This document shows positions 5,315-30,506 of a stretch of DNA of 34,829 bases, one piece after another (the stretch's first letter is position 1; each line of letters begins with the position of its first letter). The translations under genes and the position numbers were made by a program. Source of the stretch: an uncultured Spirochaetaceae bacterium (GTDB lineage Bacteria > Spirochaetota > Spirochaetia > SZUA-6 > DRHE01); the NCBI GenBank assembly GCA_964551205.1, contig CAZKCQ010000004.1, positions 1-34,829 of the forward strand, in the 5' to 3' direction. The notes under the pieces are model-generated. The model worked only from the letters and a program-made list of their open reading frames with translations. It was not told the DNA's origin and ran no database searches.

Positions 5315-6043
5315 CTACCGGGCGTATAGTCGGTTGGAAAGAGGATCGAAAGCAACCTTCTTGCCCGGTTCGATCATCAGAAAATCATCACTATCCCACT
5401 CGCCGTTCACAAAACGTTCGAGGAGATCGGGACTTCCGCAATGCTCTTCGTATTTCAAGTTTCGATTCAAGCGGTTGCTTAGGTTGCTTTGGCACTCCCG
5501 AGTGTACTGCTTAGTTCTCCTGGCCACCTGCTCACCAAGCTCTTCCCAGTAGATGCAGGCCAGATGCGTATAATTTTCCATCAGAACCTGTTCAACCACC
5601 TCTCTCGAACTCTCGTCGATCGGGCGGCCATAGAAGTTCCGGTATTTCTCCAGATAGTCGCTTCCTCCCGGCAGCGGGAATCCCTCAATCCATCCGTATG
5701 AATACCAGAAGATCCCGGGCCTACCCGCAACCAGTTGAATATGCCGCTGTTTGTCGCCTAAAAGGAGCGGAATACAGTCGGAGCAATTGTGCATCACCGT
5801 GGGCAGACCTGGGTGGAAGAGGTCGAGGATTCCTTTTCCACACAAACCATAGTTGAGCAGAACAAAGTCGTAATCCGTGGAATCGATTCTACCAAGAGCT
5901 TCTATAAGAGTCCTCTGAAGCTTATTCGGAAACTCGTGAAGACCCTGATCAATGAACTCGACATCTATCAAATTCGGCGAGCGGGATACGGCAAATTGGA
6001 GCTCGCGTCTCATCACAGCACAGGAAATTATTTTCAGCCGCAT
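5315..6043 (-). CDS. DUF1638-like protein (corrinoid-methyltransferase-associated family)
   Basis: 242 aa. The start MRLKIISCAVMRREL, then NYGLCGKG and HNCSDCIPLLLG, match my memory of DUF1638 proteins. Cysteines lie at 8, 68, 87 and 90. The gene starts 27 nt after the permease stop with AAGG upstream. Being a CDS is secure; the family call is from memory only. Confidence 0.6.
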   Translation of the reverse strand: MRLKIISCAVMRRELQFAVSRSPNLIDVEFIDQGLHEFPNKLQRTLIEALGRIDSTDYDFVLLNYGLCGKGILDLFHPGLPTVMHNCSDCIPLLLGDKQRHIQLVAGRPGIFWYSYGWIEGFPLPGGSDYLEKYRNFYGRPIDESSREVVEQVLMENYTHLACIYWEELGEQVARRTKQYTRECQSNLSNRLNRNLKYEEHCGSPDLLERFVNGEWDSDDFLMIEPGKKVAFDPLSNRLYAR

Positions 6044-6070
6044 AGTTCGCCTTCGTTTCGCAGGGTGAGA

Positions 6071-6910
6071 TTATTGCCCGGCCAGGGATCCTGCAATCAA
6101 ACCCTGAACGAGGTACCGCTGGGCGAAGATGTACAGAATGAGCATAGGCGCTGTCGCCACAGCCATCCCCGACATGATGAGAGGAATATTGATACTGAAC
6201 CTCCCGTGGAACAAAGCCAGGCCGACCATCAGAGTACGCAGTTTTTCCCGCTGCAGAAAGATAAGAGCGACCAGTAGCTCGTTCCAGACATAGAGGGAGC
6301 AAACCACGAACATCGAAAGAAGGATGGGTTTGGACAAGGGTAGCATGATACGCAGGAAGATTCCGAAGCTTCCGCACCCGTCGATAAGGGCGGAGTCAAT
6401 CAGGGGCTGCGGAATGGTTACAAAGAAACTTCGCAATAGATACATGGAAAAGGGGAGAAACATCCCGATGTAGACAATGATTGCTGATGGGTAGGTGTTA
6501 ACCAAACGAACCCTCGCCATGAGCACGAACAGCGGGATAATCATTACAATCGTCGGGATGACCATTAATGCTATTGATGAGTTAATCAGTAACTTTTTTC
6601 CGGGAAAATACATCTTGCTTAAAGCATAAGAGGCCAGAGCACTGATGAAAAGGCAGATAACCACGGTTGTAGCGGTGAGAAGAAGACTGTTGTAGAACCA
6701 TCTTAAGAAGTTCGGTGTAGTGAAAATCTGTGAGAAATTGGCAAAAACCAGTGACGGAGGGAGGGACAGGGGATTATCCGCATAGGCCGATCTGCTCTTC
6801 AAGGCGTTTGTGAAAATGTAGTAGATCGGATAACAGGTCACCACTGCCATGAATAGCAGGAGTAACTGTTTCACGCCATATCCGACCGCTGATTTAATAT
6901 TTATTCTCAT
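6071..6910 (-). CDS. ABC transporter permease, CUT1 MalG-like (importer copy 1)
   Basis: 279 aa, 6 TM. EAA loop LIDSALIDGCGSFGIFLRIMLPLSKP, and WNELLVALIFLQREKLRTLMVGL is shared with the other three MalG-like permeases in the window. Confidence 0.9.
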   Translation of the reverse strand: MRINIKSAVGYGVKQLLLLFMAVVTCYPIYYIFTNALKSRSAYADNPLSLPPSLVFANFSQIFTTPNFLRWFYNSLLLTATTVVICLFISALASYALSKMYFPGKKLLINSSIALMVIPTIVMIIPLFVLMARVRLVNTYPSAIIVYIGMFLPFSMYLLRSFFVTIPQPLIDSALIDGCGSFGIFLRIMLPLSKPILLSMFVVCSLYVWNELLVALIFLQREKLRTLMVGLALFHGRFSINIPLIMSGMAVATAPMLILYIFAQRYLVQGLIAGSLAGQ

Positions 6911-6932
6911 CGCTCCCTCTTCACACCAAGCA

Positions 6933-7850
6933 TCAGTATTCCTCCGCCAATTTTTCCCGGAATCTGTAGGAAATAACGATGAAAATAATGGTAATGATGA
7001 GCAGGATCACCGCGGCTACGGTAGCATGGCCCATGCGGTTGTAGTGGAAAGCCTCTTTGTAGATGTAGAACTCGGTGATCCAGGTCTTGTACCCAGGTCC
7101 ACCGTTTGTCATCACGAAGATGAAGGCGAAAATCTGGCTCAACATCACGATGATGTTCAAGGTCACGAAAAACTCGATCACCGTGCCAAGTTCCGGAATG
7201 ATGATTTTCCCGAATCTTCTCCACCAGCCGGCGCCGTCGATTCGAGCCGCTTCGATGATCCCTTCAGACATGGAGCTCAATCGAGCTAAAAACAGGATGA
7301 CCCCGAATCCGGTCTGCCGCCAGATAATGACCGCTGATATTGTCGGCAGTGCCCAACTCGGATCTACGATCCACTGTTTCTTTATGAAACCCAGCCCAAC
7401 AAGAGTGAGGATCTGATTGAAACCGCCGTTCAGGGAGAAAAAATTCGACATCGCGAATCCGATGGCCACGATCGGGATCACATAAGGTGTAAGTACCAGG
7501 CTTCTGTAGACCTTCCAACCGTGTACGTGGTCGTTGATAACCACCGCAAGTACAAGAGCGATCAAGGTCATGACGGGAACGTTCATTAGCAATAGAATGT
7601 TGTGGTATAACGATTGGAAGAACCGTTCATCCTGGAACACGAGGCGATAATTGCGCAATCCGACAAATTGCCTCGGAGTTTTCAAAAAATCCAGCAGGCT
7701 GAAGCGGCATACCTCCACCACCGGGTAGAAATAGATGAATCCTATTACCAGAAATGCCGGGAGAAGATAGGTGAATGGTTTAAGCGAAAATCTGCTTCCC
7801 CGCAGCAGTGGATTTGATGCGAACCTGTTCATTATTGATAATTTGGGCAC
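6933..7850 (-). CDS. ABC transporter permease, CUT1 MalF-like (importer copy 1)
   Basis: 305 aa. EAA loop IIEAARIDGAGWWRRFGKIIIPEL. GTG start with GGAGGAGGG 9 nt upstream; ATG 7832 is an alternative start. Confidence 0.9.
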   Translation of the reverse strand: MPKLSIMNRFASNPLLRGSRFSLKPFTYLLPAFLVIGFIYFYPVVEVCRFSLLDFLKTPRQFVGLRNYRLVFQDERFFQSLYHNILLLMNVPVMTLIALVLAVVINDHVHGWKVYRSLVLTPYVIPIVAIGFAMSNFFSLNGGFNQILTLVGLGFIKKQWIVDPSWALPTISAVIIWRQTGFGVILFLARLSSMSEGIIEAARIDGAGWWRRFGKIIIPELGTVIEFFVTLNIIVMLSQIFAFIFVMTNGGPGYKTWITEFYIYKEAFHYNRMGHATVAAVILLIITIIFIVISYRFREKLAEEY

Positions 7851-7856
7851 AATGAG

Positions 7857-7888
7857 ATTCCCTCCTCCTTTCTATCGGAGGAGGGAAT
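7857..7888 (-). promoter_or_regulatory. 12-bp stem-loop between SBP1 and its permease gene that sequesters the permease SD
   Basis: ATTCCCTCCTCC (7857..7868) pairs perfectly with GGAGGAGGGAAT (7877..7888) around an 8-nt loop. On the mRNA the 3' arm is the GGAGGAGGG Shine-Dalgarno of the gene starting at 7850. Confidence 0.55.
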
Positions 7889-7924
7889 GCTCATATTAAT
7901 CAAGCGATTTCCAATACAGATAAC

Positions 7925-9277
7925 CTACTTGTATTTGTCCGCATCCTTCTTCCACTCGGCGGCGATTCTCTTGAATCGCTCCAGAGCTTCCGGGAACTCT
8001 CTTCGCCACTTCACAGCCGCATCTTCGTACCTCTGGGCTGCTTCGGCCGCGGAAATGTCACCGATCGATAACAGCTGGGCCGATGCCCAAACCTCGCTTT
8101 CGATCTGCGGGACATAGTGCTCGTTGTACGTGTAGTTCGGCACCTCAACGACCCACTTGGCCATAAGCTTGTCGGCGCTGGTCATTATGTCCAGGCTTAC
8201 TTTGTCGCTGGCCTGTATGGCCCCGCTCTGTTTGTACATAGCGGCTATTCGTTCCTCGGAATGGAGATATCGCAAGAAATCCGCCGCTGTTTCCGGATGC
8301 TTACTCAGCTTGGCTATTCCCAAAGGCATGGTGTAGAAGGGCATACGGCCCGCGAGTTTCCCGGGATTCGGCGGAGTTGGGGAGATCATGACGCTGACCG
8401 AATCTTCACCCAATTCCTTGATATACCCGTTAACCATGGATTGCACGGCAAACACCATCCCGACTTTTCCGTTCAAGTATTTATCGTTTCCCTCGGCAAA
8501 ACCGACCGATGCAGCGTCTTCGTTGAACAGCCCCTTATTTATAAGCTCTTCGATCCTGTACCAAAAGTTTGAATGTTTGGGATCGGTGAAGTGCTGGATC
8601 CCCATCACCGCTTCGTGTAGATCGGACATATCGTCGAGGTTTTGAATCCCCACCAAACATGCCCACCAGACACCCATATAGCCATCCTTGAATCCGCAGG
8701 AGAAGGGCGTAAAGCCGCCCGTGTCCAGTTTTTCCAGTGCACTTACAAAGTCGTTCCACTGCTGCGGCGGGCTGTCGGGATTCAATCCGACCTCTCGATA
8801 GATCTTAGGATTCAAGACTGTTAACCAGGCACCTCCGTAAAGCGGAACGAGCCAGGTGTGCCCGTCCCAGCTGAGCTCTCGTCGTGCAGGTGGAGAGATA
8901 TGGGCTAATTCCTCTTCACTCCAATACTCATCGACAGGTACGATATTCCCGGCTTCCGAACCGTCCATTCCCTGCTGCCTGCCGAACAGTTGAATATCCG
9001 GAGGAGTTCCAGCAGCAAGTTCTGCCTTCCACACTGTGAACAAATCTTCGATCGGTATTTCCGGAGCTTCGACAGTTATGTTGGGATTCTGTTGTTGATA
9101 TAGCTCAGTAGATTCTTTCATCCAGGCAGCCATACCGGGGGCTTCACCATCTCCCCACCAATAACAGCGAATTTCGATCTTTTCCGCTTCCTGGCCTCCG
9201 CCGGAGAACACCGGTACGCTTAGGAAACAGAGCCCTACAACCAGCGCGATGCCAGCCAACAACTTTTTCCTTTCCAT
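7925..9277 (-). CDS. ABC transporter substrate-binding protein, family 1 / CUT1-type (importer copy 1)
   Basis: The track ORF 7925..9484 is trimmed to ATG 9277, which has AGGAGG 6 nt upstream and opens a signal peptide MERKKLLAGIALVVGLCFLSVPVFSGGGQE. It aligns end to end by eye with SBPs 13485..14855 and 21812..23143. Confidence 0.9.
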   Translation of the reverse strand: MERKKLLAGIALVVGLCFLSVPVFSGGGQEAEKIEIRCYWWGDGEAPGMAAWMKESTELYQQQNPNITVEAPEIPIEDLFTVWKAELAAGTPPDIQLFGRQQGMDGSEAGNIVPVDEYWSEEELAHISPPARRELSWDGHTWLVPLYGGAWLTVLNPKIYREVGLNPDSPPQQWNDFVSALEKLDTGGFTPFSCGFKDGYMGVWWACLVGIQNLDDMSDLHEAVMGIQHFTDPKHSNFWYRIEELINKGLFNEDAASVGFAEGNDKYLNGKVGMVFAVQSMVNGYIKELGEDSVSVMISPTPPNPGKLAGRMPFYTMPLGIAKLSKHPETAADFLRYLHSEERIAAMYKQSGAIQASDKVSLDIMTSADKLMAKWVVEVPNYTYNEHYVPQIESEVWASAQLLSIGDISAAEAAQRYEDAAVKWRREFPEALERFKRIAAEWKKDADKYK

Positions 9278-9295
9278 CCCACACCTCCTATAGTT

Positions 9296-9309
9296 TGATA
9301 ACGTTGCCA
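9296..9309. promoter_or_regulatory. LacI-family operator-like palindrome TGATAACGTTGCCA
   Basis: 14-bp CG-centred near-palindrome of the TGnnAACGTTnnCA type. It shares 1 nt with the TATAAT box of the SBP1 promoter. Confidence 0.6.
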
Positions 9310-9339
9310 TTATACTATCATATATTTGCAATTTGTCAA
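9309..9339 (-). promoter_or_regulatory. Candidate promoter of importer copy 1
   Basis: On the minus strand: TTGACA (complement of 9334..9339), 19 nt spacer, TATAAT (complement of 9309..9314). Both hexamers are perfect but the spacer is long. Confidence 0.45.
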
Positions 9340-9347
9340 GAGAATAA

Positions 9348-9361
9348 TGATAACGTAGCCA
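9348..9361. promoter_or_regulatory. Second operator-like site TGATAACGTAGCCA
   Basis: It differs by one base from site 9296..9309. The two centres are 52 bp apart, and this site lies 8 nt upstream of the -35 box. Confidence 0.5.
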
Positions 9362-9372
9362 ATTATCGTTCT

Positions 9373-10206
9373 TTATGACCCGGAGTATAGAGTAACGGTC
9401 AGCTCTACTTCTATTGGGAAAGGCTTTTGAGCGTACGGCTTCATCAGGATGAAAGGAGAGTCCCAGGCCCGAGACCAGTTCCATTCCCGGATATCGCTGG
9501 TTTCGGTGGTTACTTCCATATCTTTGACCATGGCCAGGTGCTCATACACTCCGGGACTTGAAAAATAGCAGTAGTGGCCGAAACTGCAGCGATGCAACCT
9601 CTCTGGATCTTCCTTTTCCGGGTAATTGAACCAGACAATCTCGAATGCGATGGGCCGTGGAGTTGGCTTCATGTCAAGAACCTCCAGCCGGAGATGGTAG
9701 ACACCGTCTGCATAGCTAACCGGTGCCGCCCAATTCATCGGTACGTTAATGGGGTGATCCACTTCCATGATGAAATCCCAGTCGTCGTAGAGGATGTTTT
9801 TTCCCTCGAAAGTATAGGTCCCCTTGAGAAATGTGAAAGATTGCAGCGCTTCCTGTCCGGTTATTCCTTGCAACCGCTTGGTTTCGCTCAATCGACCGTC
9901 AGCCAGTCTTGCCAAAGCCTCCTCCCCGGTGCCCGGGAAACCGCTGTACACCTTCACCCCCCGGTAAGCCAGTAGATTCATACACTGAGGATGGATCTTC
10001 CCGCAAATCACGGTATCCACATCCTTGTCGAGGAAGACGGCGACTGCCTGTGCACCAACGAAATCCTCCCGGTTCCTACAGCAATTCAAAATGCAATCGA
10101 TTTCATTCGTCCCTGAATCATAGATCAGATAATAGATCGCACTGGCAAAATCCTTCGTGATGTTCTCAGTAAGTATCTTACCGATCGCCGGTATCCCTAC
10201 TCTCAT
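9373..10206 (-). CDS. NifX/NifB-C-like (dinitrogenase FeMo-cofactor-binding fold) domain fused to an unknown ~170-aa C-terminal domain
   Basis: Residues 1 to about 105 (MRVGIPA...DFASAIYYLIYD...VDTVICGKIHPQCMNLLAYRGVKVYSG..GTGEEAL) follow the pattern of small NifX/NifB-C-like proteins. The remainder (FTFLKGTYTFEG...LHRCSFGHYCYF...VELTVTLYSGS) is unrecognised. AGGAGG lies 5 nt upstream of ATG 10206. Confidence 0.65.
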   Translation of the reverse strand: MRVGIPAIGKILTENITKDFASAIYYLIYDSGTNEIDCILNCCRNREDFVGAQAVAVFLDKDVDTVICGKIHPQCMNLLAYRGVKVYSGFPGTGEEALARLADGRLSETKRLQGITGQEALQSFTFLKGTYTFEGKNILYDDWDFIMEVDHPINVPMNWAAPVSYADGVYHLRLEVLDMKPTPRPIAFEIVWFNYPEKEDPERLHRCSFGHYCYFSSPGVYEHLAMVKDMEVTTETSDIREWNWSRAWDSPFILMKPYAQKPFPIEVELTVTLYSGS

Positions 10207-10234
10207 AATTCCTCCTTCATTCTCCGATTAGAGT

Positions 10235-11539
10235 TTATTCTAAACCGAGCCCTTCGATCTTCGAGACAGCCCAAAGCGCTCGGTTTCGAACCGTTGCGTG
10301 CAGGTCGTGAGCTGCTTGCCACAAATGTGGAAGCACCGGCTTGGCGCAGGCAGGGATACTTCCCAGACATTCGGCAGCCAGAAATCGCAGATCCGACTCG
10401 ACATCAGAGAGCATAGACACAAGTGTATCAACTTTGCTCTCTCCTTCTTCGGCAACCTGCCCAAATGACCACAGGGCCGCCCAGCGCGCTTCTATTTCGG
10501 GGTGAGTTACACCCTGGACTTCTTCCATAAATCGGGCCAGCTGCTCCGCAACCTCTGTCCCCCCTTTCCCGGTCCACCCCAACGCCCAGGCAACCCGAGC
10601 CCGAACCGGGCAATCCTTCCGCCCGAGGACGCCGAGGAGCTCCGATACCGCAACTGAAGAGCCATACCCGATCTTACCCAAAGCCTCCGCAGCGGTTCCC
10701 TGAATTTCAGGCTCCTGGTTATGCAGGAGTCCAACGAGAACCGGTATCTGTTTGAAGCCGCTCGGTCCCAGATCACCGATATCCTCGATAGCCTGAACTC
10801 CCAAATCCATTCCATTCTCATTTTTGCTTTTGGCCGCAGAGTCTCCGGATGCTCCTGCATTAAAACCGTCTTGGGGGAGATCCGAGAACAACGGGGACTG
10901 CCCATCCGTTTCTTTCCAGGTTGGTTCAATCTCTCCCAGAGTACGAGCTGCCTGGAAGCGTAGGATGGGGTGCGAATCGGACAGGCACGCTTTTACCAGC
11001 GGTATAGCGGCCTGCGCCGCCCTCCCGATTCTCTGCAGAGCCCAGACCGCAACCAGGCGGTGGGAGACGTCCCGCTGCGCAACAACCCGCATCAGCTGGG
11101 AAACCACCTGCTTCGCCGGAGCGGCGATTTCTCCCAATGCCCAGACCGCAGCCCACGAGGCGTGGGAGTCGACGTCCCATATTGAAGAGATCAAGCGCGG
11201 AACAGCAGCAGATGCCTTCTGGCCCGCTCTTCCCAAAGCATAAGCGACTCGGGCGTTAAAATCAGTTTCGTCTTTTCCCTCCAGCATCTCCGCCAGGATG
11301 GGAATTGCATTACTTTGAAAAGCGCCAATCTTGCCTAAGGCCTCGGCGGCTGTGCCACGGACATCACCATCCCCGTCGGCCAGAAGAGGATGAAGAAGGG
11401 ATAAGAGCTCATCTTCGTTCGGGTACAGCTCTCCAAGCTGCCAGGCCGCTTCCACTCGGCTGAGACGATGTTCTGACCTGGTTTTTCGGCAGATTTCCTC
11501 GAATGTCTCCAAGAGCAATCCTCTGGGGTAATTCTTCAT
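10235..11539 (-). CDS. HEAT-repeat protein, PBS-lyase HEAT-like type (paralogue 1)
   Basis: 434 aa with about 11 repeats of the form D.d..VR..AAeALGkIG....aiP.L (e.g. DGDVRGTAAEALGKIGAFQSNAIPILAEML). Two repeat blocks are split by a low-complexity linker (..SDLPQDGFNAGASGDSAAKSKNENG..). The gene starts 15 nt after the permease stop. Confidence 0.85.
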   Translation of the reverse strand: MKNYPRGLLLETFEEICRKTRSEHRLSRVEAAWQLGELYPNEDELLSLLHPLLADGDGDVRGTAAEALGKIGAFQSNAIPILAEMLEGKDETDFNARVAYALGRAGQKASAAVPRLISSIWDVDSHASWAAVWALGEIAAPAKQVVSQLMRVVAQRDVSHRLVAVWALQRIGRAAQAAIPLVKACLSDSHPILRFQAARTLGEIEPTWKETDGQSPLFSDLPQDGFNAGASGDSAAKSKNENGMDLGVQAIEDIGDLGPSGFKQIPVLVGLLHNQEPEIQGTAAEALGKIGYGSSVAVSELLGVLGRKDCPVRARVAWALGWTGKGGTEVAEQLARFMEEVQGVTHPEIEARWAALWSFGQVAEEGESKVDTLVSMLSDVESDLRFLAAECLGSIPACAKPVLPHLWQAAHDLHATVRNRALWAVSKIEGLGLE

Positions 11540-11554
11540 AAAAGCAACCCGGTC

Positions 11555-12427
11555 CTATTCTTTCAACGAACCGGCTACCAATCCGCGAACCAGATACTTC
11601 TGGCAGAACACGTAAAGCACAATCATGGGGACGATTGCGGTGGACATGCCGGCCATCAGCAGGGGAACGTTGACGCTGAACCGTCCCTTCAGAAGGGTAA
11701 GACCCACCATGATGGTTCGCAGATGCTCCCTCTGCATAAATATCAGTGCAATCAGCAGTTCGTTCCAGACCCACAACGTGCAGACAACCAGAAGTGCGAA
11801 CATCACTGGTTTGGAAAGGGGCACCAAGATTCTCCGCAGAATGCCGAAGCTGCCGCAACCGTCAACCCGGGCGGAATCCAGCATAGCCTGGGGGATGGTA
11901 ATGAAGAAACTTCGCAGCAGATAGATACTGAAAGGCAGGAGCATCCCCGCATAAATTATAATTACCGCCGGGTAGGTGTTTACCAGTCCAAAACGAGACA
12001 TCAGCACGAACAGTGGGATCATCATAACGATCGGTGGGACAACCATGAGAGATATGATGAAATTATGGAGCAATCGTCGGCCTACAAACTTCATGCGGCC
12101 GAGAGCATAGGCGGCAAGACTGCCCGTAACCAGGGTGACCAGCACGGCCCCGGCAGCCAGCAACACGGTGTTGGCGAACCAGCGCAGGAAATTCGGTGCG
12201 TTGAACACCTGCACGAAATTGTAGAGAACGACCTCCCTTGGTAGGGATATCTGGCTCTGGGCATAGGCGACTCGGGTTTTAAAGGAGTTGACGAGTACAT
12301 AGTACACCGGGTAGATCGTCGAAAAAGCCATTAATACCAGAAGGGCTTGCTTTATCCCCTGAGTGAATCCACGGAAAAGAAGGGCACCAATATCCCCTTT
12401 TCTCTTTCGCCTACTCATACTGTTCAC
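11555..12427 (-). CDS. ABC transporter permease, CUT1 MalG-like (importer copy 2)
   Basis: 290 aa. MLDSARVDGCGSFGILRRILVPLSKP and WNELLIALIFMQREHLRTIMVGL. GTG 12427 or ATG 12418 is the start, and either overlaps the 3' end of the upstream permease gene. Confidence 0.9.
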   Translation of the reverse strand: MNSMSRRKRKGDIGALLFRGFTQGIKQALLVLMAFSTIYPVYYVLVNSFKTRVAYAQSQISLPREVVLYNFVQVFNAPNFLRWFANTVLLAAGAVLVTLVTGSLAAYALGRMKFVGRRLLHNFIISLMVVPPIVMMIPLFVLMSRFGLVNTYPAVIIIYAGMLLPFSIYLLRSFFITIPQAMLDSARVDGCGSFGILRRILVPLSKPVMFALLVVCTLWVWNELLIALIFMQREHLRTIMVGLTLLKGRFSVNVPLLMAGMSTAIVPMIVLYVFCQKYLVRGLVAGSLKE

Positions 12428-13319
12428 TCAGTTTCTCTCTGAACCGAAAGGACAGGACTATAAAGGTAATCGTGATAATCAGAAGCACGACTGCAACCAC
12501 GGCAGAGGCGCCCATCTTGTTGAACTGAAAAGCCTGTTTGTAGATGTACAATTCCGATACCCAAGTGCTGTATCCGGGTCCCCCACCGGTCATGACGAAG
12601 ACGTAGGGAAAAATCTGGCTCAACATGGCGATAATATTGATGATCACGAAGAACTCGATCACCGTGGTCAGCTCCGGTACCACGATGCACCACAGCCTGC
12701 GCCACCAGCCAGCGCCGTCGATCCGCGCCGCCTCTAATATTTCCGGCGGCATCGAACCCAATCTGGCGAGGAATAGGACCGTACCGAAACCTATTTCTCT
12801 CCATATAATAATCACTGCTACGGAGAACAGGGACCACGTTGGATGACCGAGCCACTGCCTCTGGAAGCTTTTCAATCCGATCAGTTCCAAAAGCTGATTC
12901 AAACCTCCATGAAGCTTGAAAAAATGGGACATCGCTATGCCGATGGCTACGATCGGAACCACATAGGGAATGAGAAGCAGGCTCCTGTAGAATTTCCAAC
13001 CCCACACCTCCTCATGGAGAAGGACAGCAATTATGAGGGCAATCACTACCATGACGGGTATGGTCAGCAACAGCTCGAAGTTGTGGAGCATGGATTGGTA
13101 GAAGCGGGGATCTTTAAGCACGATCCTGAAGTTTTCAAGCCCGATGAAATCGCCGGGCCAGGATCGCAGGTCGAGAAAACTGAAATGTACTACTTGTACT
13201 ACCGGATACAAATAGATAAATCCGAGAATGAATAACGCCGGCAGCATATACAGATAGGGCTCGATCTTGACGGCCGCCCGATTTCTACTCGATTTATTGC
13301 CTGCTGATCCAGAACTCAC
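12411..13319 (-). CDS. ABC transporter permease, CUT1 MalF-like (importer copy 2)
   Basis: 302 aa. ILEAARIDGAGWWRRLWCIVVPEL. GTG start with AAGGAAGG 6 nt upstream. Confidence 0.9.
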   Translation of the reverse strand: MSSGSAGNKSSRNRAAVKIEPYLYMLPALFILGFIYLYPVVQVVHFSFLDLRSWPGDFIGLENFRIVLKDPRFYQSMLHNFELLLTIPVMVVIALIIAVLLHEEVWGWKFYRSLLLIPYVVPIVAIGIAMSHFFKLHGGLNQLLELIGLKSFQRQWLGHPTWSLFSVAVIIIWREIGFGTVLFLARLGSMPPEILEAARIDGAGWWRRLWCIVVPELTTVIEFFVIINIIAMLSQIFPYVFVMTGGGPGYSTWVSELYIYKQAFQFNKMGASAVVAVVLLIITITFIVLSFRFREKLSEQYE

Positions 13320-13419
13320 CTGCGACCTTCCTTTTCTGCATTTTTATCTAGGGAGAGAACACCTGTTCAACCAAATCGATCTTATCTACCCGATGCTCTC
13401 CGGAACACCCGATTGGAAC

Positions 13420-13444
13420 AGCCCCCTCCTCAGAAGAGGGGGCT
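13420..13444 (-). promoter_or_regulatory. 9-bp GC-rich stem-loop in the SBP2-permease spacer
   Basis: AGCCCCCTC (13420..13428) pairs with GAGGGGGCT (13436..13444) around a 7-nt loop. No U-tract follows on the mRNA. Confidence 0.4.
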
Positions 13445-13484
13445 ATTGTTAATGAGGCATTCTCTCATCAAGAAACAGGTTCTG

Positions 13485-14855
13485 TCACGGTGCAGTCTGT
13501 TTCCATTCCGCTGCTCGTTTTTTGAAGCGCTCCAGCGAGTCCGGATAGTCCGCCCTCCACTGGGCTGCGGCGTTCTCCATGTTCTGGGCTGCCTGCTCGG
13601 CGGTGATCTCTTTGATTGCCAACAATTGAGTTGAAGCCCACACCTCGCTCTCGATCTGAGGAGTGTAGTGCCAGTTGTATGTCGGCCCTGGGATATCGAC
13701 GGCCCACTGCGCAACGATTTTGTCGGATTCGCTCTTGATTAGTGCTGGATTCAGCTGATCGCTGGCCTGCATGGCACCGCTGACCAGATACATTGCAGTG
13801 ATTCTTTCCGGTGTATACATGAAGCGAATGAAGTCCGCAGCCACTTGCGGATGCTTACTCGCTTTGGCAAGGCCTATGGGCATGCTCGGAACCGGCATGG
13901 TCCCGGCCAGCTTGCCGGGCTTGGGGGGCTCGGGTGTCAGCATCGCGCCCACCGTGCCTTCCCCCATCTCCCGAACATAGGCAGCCATCATGGGCTGCAC
14001 GACGAACACCATTCCCGTATCTCCGGCCATGAATTGATCATTGCCCTCGACAAAACCGAGAGAGCCGCAATCGTCGTTGAACAAACCTTGATTGTTGAGA
14101 GTTTCGATCTGTTTCCACCAATCAACGTGCAGTGGATCGGTGAAGCTCGTCTTGCCGACCACCGCATCGTGTAAGTCGGACATATCATCGAAAGCCTGGT
14201 AGCCGAACAAACAGGCCCACCAAACTCCCATGTATCCGTCCTGGAATCCGATGGAAAAGGGAATCGATCCAGAAGCTTTCATCTTTTTCAAGGCTGCTAC
14301 AAACCCGTTCCAATCCTGCGGTGGATTTTGGACGTCTACACCGGCGGCGGAGAAGACCTTCTTGTTGAAAGCCATCAGCCAGGCGTCCATATAGAGGGGT
14401 ACCAGCCAGGTGCGGCCGCTCCAGGATAGCTCCCTCCTAGCCGGGGCAAGCAGATGGGAGAGCTCCTCCTCGGTCCAGAACTCGTCAATAGGCACGATGT
14501 TTCCGGCGGCCGCTTCATCCAGGCCCTCCTGGGGAGACAGGTTTTGTATATCCGGCGGATCACCGGCGGCTACCGCCGCTTTCCAGGTCAAGTAGATATC
14601 TTCGATAGGAATCTCGTGCGGCTCGATGGTGACATTGGGATGCTCTTTGCCGTATAGCTGCGCTGACTCCTTGACCCACTGGGCCATTCCAGGGGCCTCC
14701 GCCTCTCCCCACCAGTGCATCCGAATGGTAACCTTCTCCGCTTCAGCCATCTCTGCCCCAGCGGGCTGTTTCTCCTGTCCGCCTCCTGCAAATGCAACTG
14801 TGGCGATAGTCAGGAGTACATTTACACAGAGAAATAACACAATGCTTTTTTTCAT
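13485..14855 (-). CDS. ABC transporter substrate-binding protein, family 1 / CUT1-type (importer copy 2)
   Basis: 456 aa with signal peptide MKKSIVLFLCVNVLLTIATVAFAGGGQE. GGAGG lies upstream of the ATG. It is the closest paralogue of SBP1 (EKVTIRMHWWGEAEAPGM.., ARRELSWSGRTWLVPLY, MSDLHDAV, TPQIESEVWAS). Confidence 0.9.
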   Translation of the reverse strand: MKKSIVLFLCVNVLLTIATVAFAGGGQEKQPAGAEMAEAEKVTIRMHWWGEAEAPGMAQWVKESAQLYGKEHPNVTIEPHEIPIEDIYLTWKAAVAAGDPPDIQNLSPQEGLDEAAAGNIVPIDEFWTEEELSHLLAPARRELSWSGRTWLVPLYMDAWLMAFNKKVFSAAGVDVQNPPQDWNGFVAALKKMKASGSIPFSIGFQDGYMGVWWACLFGYQAFDDMSDLHDAVVGKTSFTDPLHVDWWKQIETLNNQGLFNDDCGSLGFVEGNDQFMAGDTGMVFVVQPMMAAYVREMGEGTVGAMLTPEPPKPGKLAGTMPVPSMPIGLAKASKHPQVAADFIRFMYTPERITAMYLVSGAMQASDQLNPALIKSESDKIVAQWAVDIPGPTYNWHYTPQIESEVWASTQLLAIKEITAEQAAQNMENAAAQWRADYPDSLERFKKRAAEWKQTAP

Positions 14856-14957
14856 TCTTTTCCTCCAAAAAAGATTCTATCCAATCCGAGTATCGAAAAG
14901 TCACTCAGCTCATATCGGGCCTCCTTTCGCGAATCCTGGATCCGTTTTTGACACCTC

Positions 14958-16337
14958 CTATCGCCCCTTTATCCGTTTCAGAGCCCAGACGGCTCTGGAA
15001 CGTACGATCGGATGATTGTCCTCTTTCAATACCTCCAGCGCCGCTTCAGCCTGCCCGGCTGCGGGTCCGATATACCCGAGGTTCTCCGCAGACATAGCCC
15101 GCACGTCGGAGTCCTCATCGGCCAGACTCGCGATCAGATCCGGCACGATTTCCTTGCCGAGATAGTCCACCCGAGCCAGAGCCCAGGTGGCGTGATAGCG
15201 GATTTCGAGGTTTCTGTGCTCGCTTCCCGCGTAGTCTCGGAGCTGTTGCCTCAGATGGGGTATTGCCTCCGCAGCTCTAGGGCCCAGCAGCCCTACGGCC
15301 CAGTCGAGGGAGGCCAGCATCTGTGGCCGAGCCTGTAGAAGAAGTGCCACCAGCGCGGTGCTCGCCTGCATCGACGTGACACCGATTTTGGCAACCGCCA
15401 GCGCCGCGCTACCCTGAAGGTGTTCATTCTTCAACAGGGGAAGAAGCTCGGGAATGATCTTCTCAACCGGAGGACCTAGCTCTCCTATAGCTCTGATGCA
15501 ATCCTGCTGGGCGTCCAAATCCCGATTTGCGATCTGTTCCAGGTAGTGTTCGGCTCGTCGAATCCTGCCCGAGTCCCCTGCGGCTCTCCCAGACTCCGAT
15601 ATGATCCCAGGCGCGGATGTTGCGGATTCTTCTGAAATCAATGCAGCGGAAACGATGGCCCGATGGCTGATTTCCGGGCAGGGGTCTGTTTCTGAAAGCG
15701 CGTGCAAAGATGGGAGGGCCGATTCCGCGGCGCTGCCGATTTCACCGAGTGCCCAGGCGGAAAGCTCTCTAACCAGAGGATGAACATCCTGAAGAGACAT
15801 TAACAGCCGAGGCACTGCAGAAGAGGCATCCCTCCCGATCAATCCCAAAGCCTTTGCGGCTCCCCAACGCTGATCGGACAGGTCTTTGTCCAATCCTCTG
15901 GATATCTGTTCGGTAACCTCTGGTGTGTTGATGCCGATCTCCGCCAGTGCCCAGAGAGCCGTATCGTAGGCATGGGTGTTGTCTCGGCGAAGCAGTTCGA
16001 GGAGTGTGGGTACGACCTGAGACGCATTCTTGCCGGCCCGACCCAGGGCGAATATACAGCGGGCTCGTCCCATATCGTCGGTTTCTCGTTCAAGAAGCTG
16101 TATTATGGGTGGGACAGTCTCAGCAGCGAGACAGCCGATTCGTCCGAGGGCTTCAGCCGCCGCCCCTCGGACACTCGGCTCCGGATCGCGGAGAGCCCCC
16201 TTCAACGACGCAATGATTGTGCTGGAGGGATCACATATTTCCCCCAAACGCCAGGCCGCCTCCACCCTTCTCATCGGGTCGGAAGCGGAAAGTTCGTTTA
16301 TCAACACGTCAATCAAATGCTTCTCCCTCAGAACCAC
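14958..16337 (-). CDS. HEAT-repeat protein, PBS-lyase HEAT-like type (paralogue 2)
   Basis: 459 aa with the same repeat type (DPEPSVRGAAAEALGRIGCLAAETVPPIIQLL) and the same two-block layout as 10235..11539. The N-termini are related (RVEAAWRLGEI versus RVEAAWQLGEL). The GTG start immediately follows the TGA of the corrinoid protein gene (TGAGTG). Confidence 0.85.
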   Translation of the reverse strand: MVLREKHLIDVLINELSASDPMRRVEAAWRLGEICDPSSTIIASLKGALRDPEPSVRGAAAEALGRIGCLAAETVPPIIQLLERETDDMGRARCIFALGRAGKNASQVVPTLLELLRRDNTHAYDTALWALAEIGINTPEVTEQISRGLDKDLSDQRWGAAKALGLIGRDASSAVPRLLMSLQDVHPLVRELSAWALGEIGSAAESALPSLHALSETDPCPEISHRAIVSAALISEESATSAPGIISESGRAAGDSGRIRRAEHYLEQIANRDLDAQQDCIRAIGELGPPVEKIIPELLPLLKNEHLQGSAALAVAKIGVTSMQASTALVALLLQARPQMLASLDWAVGLLGPRAAEAIPHLRQQLRDYAGSEHRNLEIRYHATWALARVDYLGKEIVPDLIASLADEDSDVRAMSAENLGYIGPAAGQAEAALEVLKEDNHPIVRSRAVWALKRIKGR

Positions 16338-16988
16338 TCAACTCTTGCCAACAAGTTTTTTGCAGAGGTTGATGGCTCGTAGAGCATCCGGAGCAAACCC
16401 GTCTGATTCAACCTCATTGGCGTACTCCTGGGTAATCGGCGAGCCGCCGACTATGACCTTGGCCTTACCTCCGCTGCCCCGAATGGCCTTGATCGCCGGC
16501 TTCATGGCCAGCATGGTCTGGGTCAGCAGGGCGGATAGGCCGACGATATCCGCCTTGTCCTTGTTAGCTGCATCCACAATCTCCTGGATCTTCGCATTGA
16601 CTCCCAAATCGTTCATGCTGAAGCCCGCAGCCTCGAGCATCATGCTGACCAGATTTTTGCCGATGTCGTGTACATCCCCTTCCACCGTGGCGATGACGAT
16701 CTTCCCAAGAGATTCTCCGCCGCCGGCTTGCTCCCAATACGGTTTCATCAGCTCCGTGGCCGCCTTCATGGCTTTGGCAGACAGGATCACTTCAGGAAGC
16801 CACATCTCGTAGGCTTTGAACCTCTCTCCCACAACATCCATGCCCGCAACCAGACCCTCCTTCAGGACCTTCTGAGGCTCCGTGCCCTTGTCCATAAACT
16901 CCTTGGTTAGCGCAGTTGCCTTCTGTTCATCTCCCGAAATTATCGAAGCTTTCAATTCTTCAAACATGCTGTTGTCCTCCATACTCAT
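16338..16988 (-). CDS. Methyltransferase-cognate corrinoid protein (B12-binding cap + Rossmann domain)
   Basis: 216 aa. An N-terminal helical cap is followed by the B12-binding motif set GDVHDIGKN (DxHxxG), SALLT (SxL) and VIVGG. Size and layout match MtgC/MttC/MtaC-type corrinoid proteins. Confidence 0.9.
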   Translation of the reverse strand: MSMEDNSMFEELKASIISGDEQKATALTKEFMDKGTEPQKVLKEGLVAGMDVVGERFKAYEMWLPEVILSAKAMKAATELMKPYWEQAGGGESLGKIVIATVEGDVHDIGKNLVSMMLEAAGFSMNDLGVNAKIQEIVDAANKDKADIVGLSALLTQTMLAMKPAIKAIRGSGGKAKVIVGGSPITQEYANEVESDGFAPDALRAINLCKKLVGKS

Positions 16989-17011
16989 GATTTCTCTTCT
17001 TTTTGTCCTGA

Positions 17012-18445
17012 TCAGATCTCGAGTTTCAGGCTCTTCTCGAGTGCTTTGTCCTGCTTGGCCCGCTCGTAGATCCTGTCGAGTTCCTTTTTCACATCCCGGT
17101 CAATCTCGTAGCTGTGCTCGGCAACCAGCTTTTGAGCGATCTCCCGCGCCTGCTGGCGAATCGATTTCTGACCCAGCTCGATCCACTGGCCCAGATTCGA
17201 ATGTTCGAACAGTTGAGGCATCCAGTACTCCTTGCGAAACATCTCGTAGGTGCTATTCTTGTCGACATAGGTGCCTCCCGGTCCTACATCGATGATGTCC
17301 TGGATCATCAGACGTTCCTCACTGAACTCCTCTTCCTTGAGGACGTTCCGGATGTACTGCAGCATCTCATCCAGTATCACCACCCATTCACCGCTGTAGA
17401 TCTCTCCGGTCGACAGCAGCCCGCCGCAACGAAAGGCCCTTGCCCCAGCCAATCCCGCGATCAAGGTGTGGATACCCATCTCAGCCGCGGCGTGGGCATC
17501 CGGCTCCTGGGAACTGGTCAAAAGGCTCTTTACGATAATAGGTAGGTCGTAATACTTGCACAGAGCGATCTGATGCAGAGAGTGCTGTACGTACTCCACC
17601 GATCCGTATACGAAGGTGGTGTACTTCATGCTGAAAGTGTTGGCTTCAAAGGCATCGTTGGGGGAGATGTAGTTGTTCCCCTTGGGGTTCATCAGGTACA
17701 GTACGGTCAAGCCAGCAAAATGCTCGTACATGCTCTGCAATACCGTTCCCAGAATGGTTATCGGGGCGGTAACCCCCGCTTGAGGCATGGTTGCCAACCA
17801 CATCGGGATGCCCTTATCCCGCAACCTGAAGGCCACATCGAGGTTGTGCGCGTCGAAGGACTTGGGACTGATCATCCAAATCCCGAAGGTGAAGCGTTTT
17901 CCCGCGGCTTGGGCCATCTCGTACACATAGTTGGCGCACTCGTAGGAGGGCTTATCCATGTGCTCAAAGATGTCGTTGCAGCGGTAACGTGAGTTCTCCC
18001 AGGCCGCTTTGTGCATTAGAATGTGCTGCAGATGCCCTGGCACATCCATCGGTACCACCGGCGCCGAGCCCACTGTGTCCAGGGCATCCCCAAGTTTGAT
18101 AAATTTCACCAGGTCATCAGCCGAGGCCTGTTTCAGCTTCCCCGTATCCAGATCGTAACAGGCGGTCTGATGGGCTCCGGCGGACATGAACCACTTGCCC
18201 CGCTTGTAGTACTCCGGAACATCGTAAACCGCAGCAGCCATGGCTTTCTGAACCAGATCCGGTTTAAATCGCACCATTTCCCCGTCAATTGTCACACCGT
18301 TGTGATCGGCCATCAGCTTCAGAACACCCTCATGGGGGACCTGGATACCGGAGGTTTCGATTAGCCACATGGCTTTTTCGTGCATATAGTCGATCTGTTC
18401 TTTCCGCAAGCCCCCCGCAAGCTCAAAGTTTTCTAATTTCATCAT
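17012..18445 (-). CDS. MttB-family (trimethylamine methyltransferase superfamily) methyltransferase, non-pyrrolysine, paralogue 1
   Basis: 477 aa and uninterrupted, with no in-frame TAG. The N-terminus L..EQIDYMHEKAMWLIETSGIQV...VRFKPDLVQKAM and the C-terminal ..GTYVDKNSTYEMFRKEYW...LGQW fit the MttB-family pattern. AAGGAG lies 5 nt upstream of the ATG. Confidence 0.85.
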   Translation of the reverse strand: MMKLENFELAGGLRKEQIDYMHEKAMWLIETSGIQVPHEGVLKLMADHNGVTIDGEMVRFKPDLVQKAMAAAVYDVPEYYKRGKWFMSAGAHQTACYDLDTGKLKQASADDLVKFIKLGDALDTVGSAPVVPMDVPGHLQHILMHKAAWENSRYRCNDIFEHMDKPSYECANYVYEMAQAAGKRFTFGIWMISPKSFDAHNLDVAFRLRDKGIPMWLATMPQAGVTAPITILGTVLQSMYEHFAGLTVLYLMNPKGNNYISPNDAFEANTFSMKYTTFVYGSVEYVQHSLHQIALCKYYDLPIIVKSLLTSSQEPDAHAAAEMGIHTLIAGLAGARAFRCGGLLSTGEIYSGEWVVILDEMLQYIRNVLKEEEFSEERLMIQDIIDVGPGGTYVDKNSTYEMFRKEYWMPQLFEHSNLGQWIELGQKSIRQQAREIAQKLVAEHSYEIDRDVKKELDRIYERAKQDKALEKSLKLEI

Positions 18446-18478
18446 CTCTTCTCCTTCTCATACCATTATCCTGACGGA

Positions 18479-19906
18479 TTAGTACTGCCGTTCTTTGGCC
18501 AGTGCTTCGTCCTTAGCCGCGATTTCGTAGATCCTGTCCAGCTCGCGTTTTTTCTCCGGCTCGATCTCGTAGGCATGTTCTTTCAAGAGCTTCTTTGCCC
18601 GCTCATTGGCAATCTGTACGAAGCTCTTCGAGCCCATCTCCTGCCACTGTCCCAGATTGGAATGAAGAAATACGTTGGGATCCCAGTACAGGGTTCGGTA
18701 ATGCTTGAAGGTGCTGGGGTGTTCGAGAAAGCTCTCCCCTGGTTTGATCTTGGCAATGGCATCAAACAGCAGCATCTCGTCGCTGAACTCCTCTGGTTCC
18801 AAGACATTTTTGATGTACTGAACGATCTCGTAGTCAAGCACGAGCTTTTCAGCGGCGTACACCTCGGCGCTGGTCAACAGGCCACCGCAACGGAACTCCT
18901 TGGCTCCGGCCAGAGCCGCCATCAACGTGTACATGCCCACCTCCGCTGCACACTGCGCGTCCACCTCTTTAGCTGCTGTGAGCAGTGATTTTGCCGCCAG
19001 CGGCATCTTCAGGTGCTTGTGGATCGACAGCTTGTCAACCGTGGCTCGCACGTCCTCTGCGGAACCGTACACGAAGGTGGAGTATTTCATGTCGAAGGGG
19101 TGGGCGATAAAGCTGTCGATGATCTGGATATAGTTGTAGCTTTTGGTGTTCAGAAGGTTCAGCATGGTAAGACAGGCGTAGGTCTCGAACATGGCCTGCT
19201 GGATCCCCGCCTTTTCGGTAATCGGGGAATTCACGCCCATGATCGGCATGGTGCCGGCCCACATGGGAACGCCCTTGTCTAGAAACTTATCGATGATTTC
19301 CAGCTCCACGACATCGAAGGAACGCGGGCTCACCATGTACAGGCCAAGGGCAAACCACTTGTCGGCGATCTTAGACATCTCGTAGATGTACTCGGCGCAG
19401 CGAACCGTCGGTTTCGGGTCATGCTCGAACATATCGTTCGCCCGGCGCCGCGAGTTCTCCCAGGCAACTTTATGCATCATGATCTCCTGGAGCTGGATCG
19501 GTACGTCCATCGGTACCACCGGAGCCGATCCCACCGTGTCCAGGGCATCACCGATTTTGATCATCTCGACCAAGTCTTTATGGGTGGTTTCCCGGATCTT
19601 TCCTGTGTCCATGTCCAAGATCTTTGTCTGGTGAGCCCCGGCGGAGATCACCCAACCGTCCTCGTAGTAATCGGGCAGAGGGAACCTCATCTCCTGGATG
19701 GCTTTGATCACCAGATCCGTGCGGAACTTCACCATCTGGGAGGTTTTGTCTATGGTGACTCCGTTGATGCCATGCAGGCGGTTGAGCAGTCCCTCGTGAG
19801 GAATGTGCAGGCCGACTGTCTCTACCAGCTCGATCGCTTTGTCCCGCATCAGATCGATCTGTTCGGGCCTCAGACCTCCCGCCAGGGTGTAGGCGTGTAA
19901 CATCAT
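18479..19906 (-). CDS. MttB-family methyltransferase, non-pyrrolysine, paralogue 2
   Basis: The track ORF is trimmed to ATGATG at 19906, which has AGGAGG 8 nt upstream, giving 475 aa. It shares AGAHQT, GDALDTVGSAPVVPMDVP, MHKxAWENSR, MKYxTFVYGS, FRCGGLL and HSNLGQW with paralogue 1. Confidence 0.85.
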   Translation of the reverse strand: MMLHAYTLAGGLRPEQIDLMRDKAIELVETVGLHIPHEGLLNRLHGINGVTIDKTSQMVKFRTDLVIKAIQEMRFPLPDYYEDGWVISAGAHQTKILDMDTGKIRETTHKDLVEMIKIGDALDTVGSAPVVPMDVPIQLQEIMMHKVAWENSRRRANDMFEHDPKPTVRCAEYIYEMSKIADKWFALGLYMVSPRSFDVVELEIIDKFLDKGVPMWAGTMPIMGVNSPITEKAGIQQAMFETYACLTMLNLLNTKSYNYIQIIDSFIAHPFDMKYSTFVYGSAEDVRATVDKLSIHKHLKMPLAAKSLLTAAKEVDAQCAAEVGMYTLMAALAGAKEFRCGGLLTSAEVYAAEKLVLDYEIVQYIKNVLEPEEFSDEMLLFDAIAKIKPGESFLEHPSTFKHYRTLYWDPNVFLHSNLGQWQEMGSKSFVQIANERAKKLLKEHAYEIEPEKKRELDRIYEIAAKDEALAKERQY

Positions 19907-19964
19907 CTGTCTATCCTCCTGTCTGTCTATGTTGATTCTGTTGCTGGTTATCCTTGATTTTCCG

Positions 19965-21711: not shown

Positions 21712-21755
21712 AATAAATCTCAACAACGTTGGAAGGTTGTTTCCTATTGACAGGC

Positions 21756-21779
21756 GGGGGTATTGAAAACAATACCCCC
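21756..21779 (-). promoter_or_regulatory. 10-bp stem-loop in the SBP3-permease spacer
   Basis: GGGGGTATTG (21756..21765) pairs with CAATACCCCC (21770..21779) around an AAAA loop. A T6 run (21785..21790) follows only when read on the plus strand. Confidence 0.45.
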
Positions 21780-21811
21780 AGCCGTTTTTTCTACAATTTC
21801 CTCAGACAGAT

Positions 21812-26672: not shown

Positions 26673-26700
26673 ATCAATTCCTCCGCGATGTTCTCCGCAG

Positions 26701-27699: not shown

Positions 27700-27731
27700 A
27701 CTCAACCTCTTACGTGCCGAACGCATCCTGC

Positions 27732-29169: not shown

Positions 29170-29183
29170 TGAGAACGTTACCA
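29170..29183. promoter_or_regulatory. Operator-like site TGAGAACGTTACCA
   Basis: It is of the TGnnAACGTTnnCA type. It shares 1 nt with the putative -10 box, the same geometry as site 9296..9309. Its centre is 53 bp from site 29117..29130. Confidence 0.55.
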
Positions 29184-30348: not shown

Positions 30349-30362
30349 TGGCAACGTTGCCA
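30349..30362. promoter_or_regulatory. Perfect 14-bp LacI-type operator palindrome TGGCAACGTTGCCA
   Basis: The sequence is exactly self-complementary. It lies 4 nt downstream of the -10 box of the oxidoreductase promoter, so it probably covers the transcription start. Confidence 0.65.
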
Positions 30363-30492: not shown

Positions 30493-30506
30493 TGTTAACG
30501 TTCCCA
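30493..30506. promoter_or_regulatory. Operator-like site TGTTAACGTTCCCA in front of the regulator gene (possible autoregulation)
   Basis: It is of the TGnnAACGTTnnCA type and ends 13 nt upstream of the regulator ATG at 30520. Confidence 0.5.

Follow-up and report, generated by a model that had tools for sequence, protein, structure and literature searches.

In microbes of the gut, the sea and sediments, enzymes of the MttB superfamily remove methyl groups from quaternary amines; the known MttB systems combine the methyltransferase and a corrinoid protein with a second methyltransferase and an activator. NifX-like domains are familiar from nitrogen fixation, where NifX and NafY hand the iron-molybdenum cofactor (FeMo-co) to nitrogenase and an HFG motif is typical of NifX and NifB; the function of such domains in non-diazotrophs has been open since the first structural-genomics structures. 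Here we analyse a stretch of 34,829 nucleotides (nt), hereafter the window, from an uncultured Spirochaetaceae bacterium (GenBank assembly GCA_964551205.1, contig CAZKCQ010000004.1, positions 1 to 34,829), and in it a minus-strand gene, the target, whose product joins a NifX-type fold to an unannotated beta-sandwich in one protein. This architecture is real but very rare. The fusion recurs near an MttB gene in all six divergent lineages in which it was examined, and by this recurrent neighbourhood it is an accessory gene of MttB-type loci; the target is probably an unrecognised helper of the MttB pathway. The literature searched contained nothing linking NifX-like or PF02579 proteins with MttB or corrinoid systems, and nothing relevant on MttB with HEAT repeats. 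New here are the fusion itself, as a variant inside a known superfamily, the domain family and the genomic niche.

Several described proteins resemble the target in part. RamA/RACE activators and DUF1638 share its genomic niche, their genes clustering as accessories with those of MttB-type methyltransferases and corrinoid proteins, but RamA carries iron-sulphur (Fe-S) and ATPase domains, of which the target has neither, and the two share no sequence or domain relationship. The N-terminal domain of the target belongs to the same Pfam family, PF02579, as NifX, NafY and the C-terminal part of NifB; unlike NifX and NafY, the target has no nif genes in its window, has lost the conserved His positions and is fused to a beta-sandwich. 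The domain also shares fold and family with TM1290 (PDB 1rdu), MTH1175 (1eo1) and their kin, and TM1290, like the target, has no His at the HFG position (RFA in TM1290). The TM1290/MTH1175-type proteins differ in being single-domain proteins of ~110-125 residues with no function assigned, whereas the target is without their H-G-x-G loop and has invariants of its own (E14 and N41, with R44 nearly so). ORP (2wfb), which holds a non-covalent Mo/Cu cluster, shares the fold (Foldseek E 1.3e-6, target-normalised template modelling score (TM) 0.78), but by sequence the match is marginal (E 0.075), and none of its Mrp/ParA-type ATPase partners is present at the target locus. For the C-terminal domain the nearest likenesses are CBM30, a carbohydrate-binding module (CBM; 1wzx, 1wmx, 2c24), and CIA30/NDUFAF1, jelly-roll beta-sandwiches to which its model bears only a generic likeness (TM 0.44-0.51), and CBMs share with the relatives of this domain their occurrence in secreted multidomain proteins. 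It differs from CBM30 in its 8-10% identity, the lack of a profile match and E at or above 1e-3, and the target differs from CBM-bearing proteins in being cytoplasmic, fused to a NifX-like domain and equipped with extra invariant Cys, His, Asp and Glu residues.

A NifX-superfamily domain fused to a new jelly-roll family

Protein searches covered 5.8 billion and 1.84 billion proteins and yielded ~15 homologues, full-length or contig-truncated, at 37-93% identity. Because these retain the same length and two-domain architecture, the open reading frame (ORF) of the target is a real gene (coordinates in Table 1). The window protein is a member of a six-member 90% cluster. A GGAGG lies 4 nt 5' of the ATG, and the protein, which has no N-terminal signal peptide visible in its sequence, is taken as cytoplasmic. 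Two plus-strand ORFs (9574-9975 and 9909-10160) were rejected as antisense frames inside the conserved coding region of the target. A scan of the GTDB species-representative genomes for the fusion and for SBP1, the solute-binding protein (SBP) gene downstream of it, gave no true match, the sole hit (Nonomuraea) being a 13-residue chance match that was discarded, and a scan of metagenome contigs gave only five loci, two of them already known.

The N-terminal domain is assigned by both sequence and structure. The PF02579 (Nitro_FeMo-Co) profile matches residues 14-101 (nt 9904-10167) with E 1.4e-10 and 41.7 bits against a curated cut-off of 26.3, spanning profile positions 3-92 of 94, and the closest solved sequence is Thermotoga TM1290, at E 3.4e-12 and 31% identity over the whole domain. 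The full-length AlphaFold2 (AF2) model has a predicted local distance difference test score (pLDDT) of 83.5, higher in the N-terminal domain (Table 1), and a predicted TM (pTM) of 0.85. Foldseek relates this domain with probability 1.0 to 1rdu, 2wfb, 2yx6, 1o13, 1eo1, 2qtd and 2re2 at target-normalised TM 0.70-0.81, the highest value being that to TM1290 (0.81); by name, the top relatives are TM1290, ORP, PH0822, TM1816, MTH1175, MJ0327 and Ta1041. An earlier sequence-only reading of the window had proposed a NifX/NafY/NifB-C-like domain here, and the profile match above cut-off and the fold both agree with it.

The domain thus has the NifX-superfamily fold but is probably not NifX functionally, since no nif gene turns up among the window ORFs scanned or at any homologue's locus, the HFG position reads DFA, the H-G-x-G loop (AHGTG in TM1290, SHGAG in ORP) reads EDFVG, and no cysteine of the domain is invariant. 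The name NifX is therefore unsuitable, and the target is probably unconnected with nitrogenase. The sequence-only reading had already pointed to the replacement of HFG by DFA, at a position that varies among the target's homologues, and the residues it named are all present (KDFASAIYYLIYD as residues 18-30; C38, C42, C43, C68 and C75). The extra cysteines to which it drew attention do stand in the translation, but they are not invariant, C43 being replaced by Ser, Thr or Ala and C75 by Ser or Gly in homologues. Instead, the fused clade keeps L12, E14, F20, N41 and G51 without exception and Y26, D30, R44 and A54 nearly so.

The domain shares no more than 20-31% identity (E ~1e-13) with the nearest stand-alone NifX-like proteins, whose genes lie in clusters with PadR, FmdE, CbiA-ParA-Fer4, radical SAM and NifU, never with MttB. 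In a recurrent arrangement (L105:3591-8836, L106:1075-6050, L107:4128-5700), PadR and FmdE accompany one or two NifX-like genes and a pair of CbiA/ParA-type ATPases that carry 4Fe-4S ferredoxin domains; radical SAM, NifU or OsmC are added at some loci, and at one a Nitro_FeMo-Co domain is fused to a cation-efflux protein.

Beyond a short variable linker, the C-terminal domain is predicted to be all-beta in an AF2 model built on a 33-sequence alignment (pLDDT 95.6, pTM 0.89), in keeping with the beta-rich composition noted before. The earlier view that this part of the protein fits no curated family stands, although its size is ~156 residues (122-277), not the ~170 first suggested. The domain and 32 relatives (33 copies) gave no Pfam match at E up to 1, NCBIfam had no match for the domain or its relatives, two profiles of the domain matched no PDB sequence, and Foldseek found nothing in the PDB with E below 1e-3 for the model. 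The best fold likeness is to CBM30 (TM 0.48-0.51, E 3e-3 to 8e-3), followed by NDUFAF1/CIA30 (TM 0.44), and viral capsid jelly rolls reach E-values like those of CBM30 but a TM of only 0.2-0.35. Assignments to CBM30, viral capsids, PL7 or GOLD were rejected, as the matches are generic jelly-roll matches and none falls below E 1e-3. On its model, the domain is a jelly-roll or CBM-like sandwich without a close solved relative. A hit to a well-known family such as a CBM would have refuted the earlier reading, and the domain comes close to this but matches no known CBM family. It defines a beta-sandwich family that has no Pfam, NCBIfam or PDB representative.

This family extends well beyond the fusion. 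An exhaustive profile search of the 1.84 billion proteins gave 55 representative relatives at E up to 1e-3, 31 of them at E up to 1e-10. The majority are secreted (FG-GAP propellers, proteins with fn3 domains and the type IX secretion system (T9SS), lipoproteins), and short proteins with signal or lipoprotein leaders are among them. The domain is found at the C-terminus of secreted FG-GAP/VCBS propellers (P0016, P0020, P0025 and P0042), one of which (P0016, 728 residues) has two tandem copies, and in proteins with CHB_HEX_C/Fn3_assoc domains or with fn3 and type IX secretion tails. One stand-alone secreted copy (L011:1443-2828) adjoins a GH29-like fucosidase, assigned by eye from its translation. 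In view of this copy and the secreted multidomain relatives, the domain is not peculiar to the target. An apparent stand-alone cytoplasmic copy, P0015, was rejected, its frame being open to the contig edge and hence a truncated fusion; every member of the fused clade seen so far is cytoplasmic and fused. As its relatives are mostly secreted, glycan-associated proteins, the domain is a mobile module, linked to glycans and mainly extracytoplasmic, that a cytoplasmic fusion has taken up.

The jelly-roll domain is the better conserved half of the fusion. Conservation in the wider family was taken from an alignment of 33 domain copies (A3), and that of the fused clade from two further alignments (A4 and A5). 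The wider family keeps G135, W143, W159, P162, G168, P257 and P264 invariant, and D142, D144, F145, P156, N158, V176, N194, H205, G219, Y221 and W242 in at least 90% of copies. To these the fused clade adds E189, C207, Y212, H223, A225, D229-M230-E231, T233, K256 and Q260 as invariants. The stretch LHRCSFGHYCYF (residues 204-215) contains H205-x-C207-x3-H211-x-C213, just as the sequence-only reading had described, but the possible His2Cys2 metal site that it saw there does not hold up. H205 is the one motif position retained in the wider family (at least 90%), yet it is Glu in P0014 and P0065; H211 becomes Pro, Tyr or Gln in six homologues (P0008, P0011, P0012, P0013, P0014 and P0065), and C213 becomes Ser in P0012 and P0065. 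Given these replacements, HxCx3HxC is not a conserved four-ligand site, and C207 is the only one of the four candidate ligands that is invariant in the fused clade. The conserved polar residues alternate along successive strands (H205/C207, Y221/H223/A225, D229/E231/T233), a periodicity of i, i+2 that would fit a site on one face of a beta-sheet.

Recurrence beside MttB and a CUT1 importer

Six independent lineages of the fusion were compared; outside the window clade their fusions are 37-51% identical to the window protein, and the GC content of the loci ranges from 35 to 65%. The window clade itself (P0003, P0004 and P0006, 68-74% identical) has two MttB genes, a corrinoid-protein gene, two HEAT genes, the target, an SBP with two permeases, and DUF1638. 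In P0007 (51%) an SBP, two permeases and an MFS gene lie directly upstream and MttB is ~7 kb away. P0008 (46%) has MttB 550 nt downstream, followed by a LacI-type gene. In P0011 (45%) MttB is directly upstream, its stop overlapping the start of the fusion, and an SBP follows 42 nt downstream. The order in P0012 (41%) is M24, E1-alpha, E1-beta, SBP, two permeases, target and MttB (97 nt downstream), and in the most distant lineage, P0065 (37%), it is PTE, SDR, PfkB, HAD, target, SDR, HEAT, corrinoid protein and MttB, the last two within 3.3 kb.

MttB is thus near the fusion in every lineage and a CUT1 transporter in five of the six. The SBP is adjacent or within ~2 kb in four, and both permeases are there wherever the contig is long enough. 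The order HEAT-HEAT-target recurs in L001-L003 and L013-L015, and a HEAT gene is also found near P0065. A corrinoid-protein gene is visible in two lineages (the window clade and P0065), and DUF1638 is not on the contigs of the five lineages other than that of the window.

By sequence, the importer is the more constant partner. The SBP beside the fusion is 78% identical among the window (7925-9277), L004:4876-6222 and L103:2408-3469, at loci of 48-63% GC, and between the window and L004 the permeases share 73% identity. Across these loci the fusion itself is 45-51% identical, and the neighbouring MttBs are 20-30% identical to those of the window. With the SBP at 78% and the MttBs at 20-30%, the fusion follows the importer more closely than it follows any one MttB subtype. 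An identity of 78% is unusually strong conservation for a solute-binding protein.

Two further observations concern the surroundings of the fusion in these lineages. The gene order M24, E1-alpha, E1-beta (window 25695-29087; L101:132-3540) recurs beside the fusion and importer in a 35%-GC contig whose fusion is 41% identical, which suggests that these catabolic genes belong to the same pathway as the fusion module. Small ORFs with no Pfam match also adjoin the fusion in two divergent lineages (L004:10825-11061, 78 residues; L016:519-809, 96 residues).

Candidate roles of the fusion protein

The reading that we favour, at a probability of roughly 0.35, is an accessory role on the substrate side, in which the CBM-like domain would bind or process an imported solute for MttB. 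In its favour are the way in which the fusion follows the importer, the glycan association of the domain family, the gain of a putative polar site on a sheet face and the loss of the NifX-type ligand residues. The fused form would then be a dedicated accessory gene of a module made of an MttB corrinoid methyltransferase and a CUT1 importer. A polar site in the jelly-roll domain (E189, N194, H205, C207, Y212, H223, D229, E231 and K256) would bind or chemically process the imported solute and so make it available to MttB, and the NifX-like domain may supply a second pocket or a docking surface. The domain identities, the pattern of conservation, the gene association and the split between cytoplasmic fusions and secreted relatives are observed; beyond these, we infer ligand binding, the hand-off to MttB and which domain does what. 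We call the importer carbohydrate-type because the nearest solved relatives of SBP1 bind chitin-, xylo- and manno-oligosaccharides. A search of the whole window with Rfam found no cobalamin riboswitch and no other RNA family, and we count the former in favour of the substrate side.

Several points weigh against this substrate-side role. A promoter with LacI-type operator-like sites parts the target from the SBP1 operon, and the target is co-transcribed with the HEAT gene. The MttBs are very divergent while the SBP is conserved, which is awkward for one substrate passing from the importer to the MttBs. The stand-alone NifX-like relatives sit in Fe-S and metal-handling clusters, a heritage that favours a cofactor role. 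That the invariant side chains would face one side is read from their i, i+2 periodicity and not from coordinates, and the case as a whole is made from gene neighbourhood and conservation. Most of the contigs are also short (1-9 kb), for which reason the missing corrinoid genes in four lineages are weak evidence.

Less likely than the substrate-side role, and on the whole unlikely, is that the protein would act on the cofactor side as a carrier or chaperone, the NifX-like domain holding a cobamide, a metal or a metal cluster and delivering it to the corrinoid protein or to MttB. This idea, which goes back to the sequence-only reading and takes as its analogy the hand-over of FeMo-co to nitrogenase by NifX and NafY, draws on membership of PF02579 and on the metal-cluster context of the nearest stand-alone relatives (FmdE, CbiA/ParA-Fer4, NifU and radical SAM). 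It must contend with the loss of the typical His positions in both HFG (now DFA) and the H-G-x-G loop (now EDFVG), and with the want of any invariant cysteine in that domain. The genes around the target speak on both sides: a B12-binding corrinoid protein is encoded at the locus of the window clade and close to P0065, but no corrinoid-protein gene is visible in the other four lineages, including the 16-kb contig L004, and the partners kept most tightly are an MttB gene and the carbohydrate-type importer. The window also has DUF1638, for which a role in the reductive recharging of cobalamin, alongside RamA, is described as predicted (PMC12478193). A carrier would leave the jelly-roll domain, the better conserved half, unexplained, and the literature searched describes no NifX-like protein with corrinoid systems.

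Somewhat more doubtful is a new jelly-roll enzyme, in which C207, H223, D229, E231 and E189 would make up an active site, with or without a catalytic metal, and convert the imported compound before or after MttB acts, for instance by modifying a methylated moiety or setting it free. At 37-45% overall identity, the 156-residue domain retains eleven invariant polar residues, with acidic residues alternating on one strand (D229-M-E231) and a second invariant Glu (E189) on another, and these polar residues are absent from the secreted, presumably binding-only relatives. That every clade member seen is cytoplasmic and fused, P0015 being a contig-truncated fusion, also speaks for an enzyme. Yet strongly conserved polar residues are equally normal in small-molecule binding sites. 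Nor is there a fold or sequence match to a jelly-roll hydrolase or lyase (PL7 TM ~0.3, nothing with E<1e-3).

We rate about as low the bolder proposal that the fused clade would be a new family of enzymes or of ligand-transfer proteins, without which the carbohydrate-type importer and MttB would lack their obligatory third, connecting component. Here a cytoplasmic jelly-roll with an invariant Cys/His/Asp/Glu site would be clamped to a remodelled NifX-like domain.

Least probable of all is a redox or metal-site helper of reductive corrinoid reactivation that would fill the RamA/RACE role with DUF1638 through a Cys/His metal site: the window clade has the Cys/His-rich HRCSFGHYC together with H223, no RamA-like gene is among the window ORFs scanned and DUF1638 lies four genes downstream of the target, but the motif does not keep its four ligands among homologues, neither an Fe-S cluster motif nor an ATPase domain is present (Pfam and NCBIfam find only PF02579 in the target), the contigs of the other five lineages do not show DUF1638, and RamA could be encoded elsewhere in the genome. 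The remaining probability goes to regulatory or other roles.

The locus in the window and its meaning

In transcription order, the minus strand of the window begins with an M24 peptidase, the E1-alpha, E1-beta and E2 components of a 2-oxoacid dehydrogenase and a second M24 peptidase, and continues with SBP3 and two permeases, two MttB paralogues, the B12-binding corrinoid protein and HEAT1. Then come SBP2 and two permeases, HEAT2, the target, SBP1 and two permeases, DUF1638, a TPR protein and an SDH-type protease. A divergent lacI gene lies further upstream with GFO/IDH/MocA and zinc alcohol dehydrogenase (Zn-ADH) genes. This bears out the gene order, the 28-nt gap between the HEAT gene (10235-11539) and the target, and the corrinoid setting that the first description of the locus had given; the setting consists of two MttB genes, a B12-binding protein and DUF1638. 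Three paralogous CUT1 sets, each of an SBP and two permeases, lie in window 5315-23143 with SBPs 42-55% identical; they are interleaved with the two MttB paralogues (52% identical), the one corrinoid protein, the two HEAT paralogues and DUF1638. No ABC ATPase gene was found among the window ORFs scanned, and neither a second methyltransferase (methylcorrinoid:tetrahydrofolate or coenzyme M) nor a RamA-type activator was seen in the window. The closest sequences to the E1-beta protein come from metagenome-assembled genomes of Spirochaetales, at 88% and 80% identity.

Table 1. Features of the target gene and its immediate surroundings (window coordinates)
Feature	Position	Strand	Basis
Whole target gene, 277-residue two-domain protein	9373..10206	(-)	ORF list; ATG start, stop codon 9373-9375
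NifX-superfamily alpha/beta domain, residues 1-108	9883..10206	(-)	PF02579 match, TM1290 match, Foldseek, pLDDT 89-97
Variable linker, residues 109-121 (13 residues)	9844..9882	(-)	pLDDT 58; poorly conserved, length varies in alignments
C-terminal jelly-roll beta-sandwich, residues 122-277	9376..9843	(-)	AF2 model all-beta
YDDWDF motif, residues 140-145	9772..9789	(-)	A3: W143 invariant; D142, D144, F145 at least 90%
H205-R-C207-S-F-G-H211-Y-C213 (HxCx3HxC)	9568..9594	(-)	A3, A4, A5
H223-x-A225 and D229-M-E231-x-T233, fused-clade invariants on two successive strands	9508..9540	(-)	A4, A5, model
Intergenic control region between target and SBP1	9296..9361	(-)	Sigma-70-like promoter 9339..9312 flanked by two TGATAACGTWGCCA sites
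Upstream HEAT-repeat gene, 28 nt from target	10235..11539	(-)	Pfam HEAT_2, E 3.6e-44
SBP1, CUT1-type solute-binding lipoprotein downstream of target	7925..9277	(-)	Pfam SBP_bac_1

SBP1 probably starts at the ATG at 9277, with the signal-peptide start MERKKLLAGIALVVGLCFLS (MERKKLL...), downstream of the promoter-like site. The longer mechanical ORF (7925-9484) was set aside, as it runs 112 nt into the 3' end of the target and the 9277 start is far more plausible. Two perfect TGATAACGTWGCCA sites, at 9296-9309 and 9348-9361, bracket the promoter; the stretch that separates the target from SBP1 yielded no intrinsic terminator. Since the promoter lies between the two genes, the target ends the HEAT-containing transcription unit. 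The sigma-70-like site and the flanking operator-like sites lend support to the LacI-type-controlled SBP1 promoter proposed from sequence, and the place of the target as the last gene before it agrees. Counting variants, TGATAACGTWGCCA occurs six times in the window against 0.37 expected; sites of this type lie at 9296-9309, 9348-9361, 29170-29183, 30349-30362 and 30493-30506. The perfect palindrome TGGCAACGTTGCCA, related to TGATAACGTWGCCA, stands at 30349 between the GFO/IDH/MocA gene and the divergent lacI. By their sequence, the TGATAACGTWGCCA and TGGCAACGTTGCCA sites look like LacI-family operators, which would define a regulon.

An additional conserved component that goes with an importer of carbohydrate type would imply an unrecognised step or substrate class in some MttB pathways. 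Should the fused clade prove to be the obligatory third component, which we consider doubtful, it would mean an undescribed class of MttB substrates, i.e. methylated sugar-like or glycosylated compounds, and the NifX fold would have a new biochemical use apart from the handling of metal clusters. The NifX-like domains of non-diazotrophs gain from this locus a concrete, testable genomic context.

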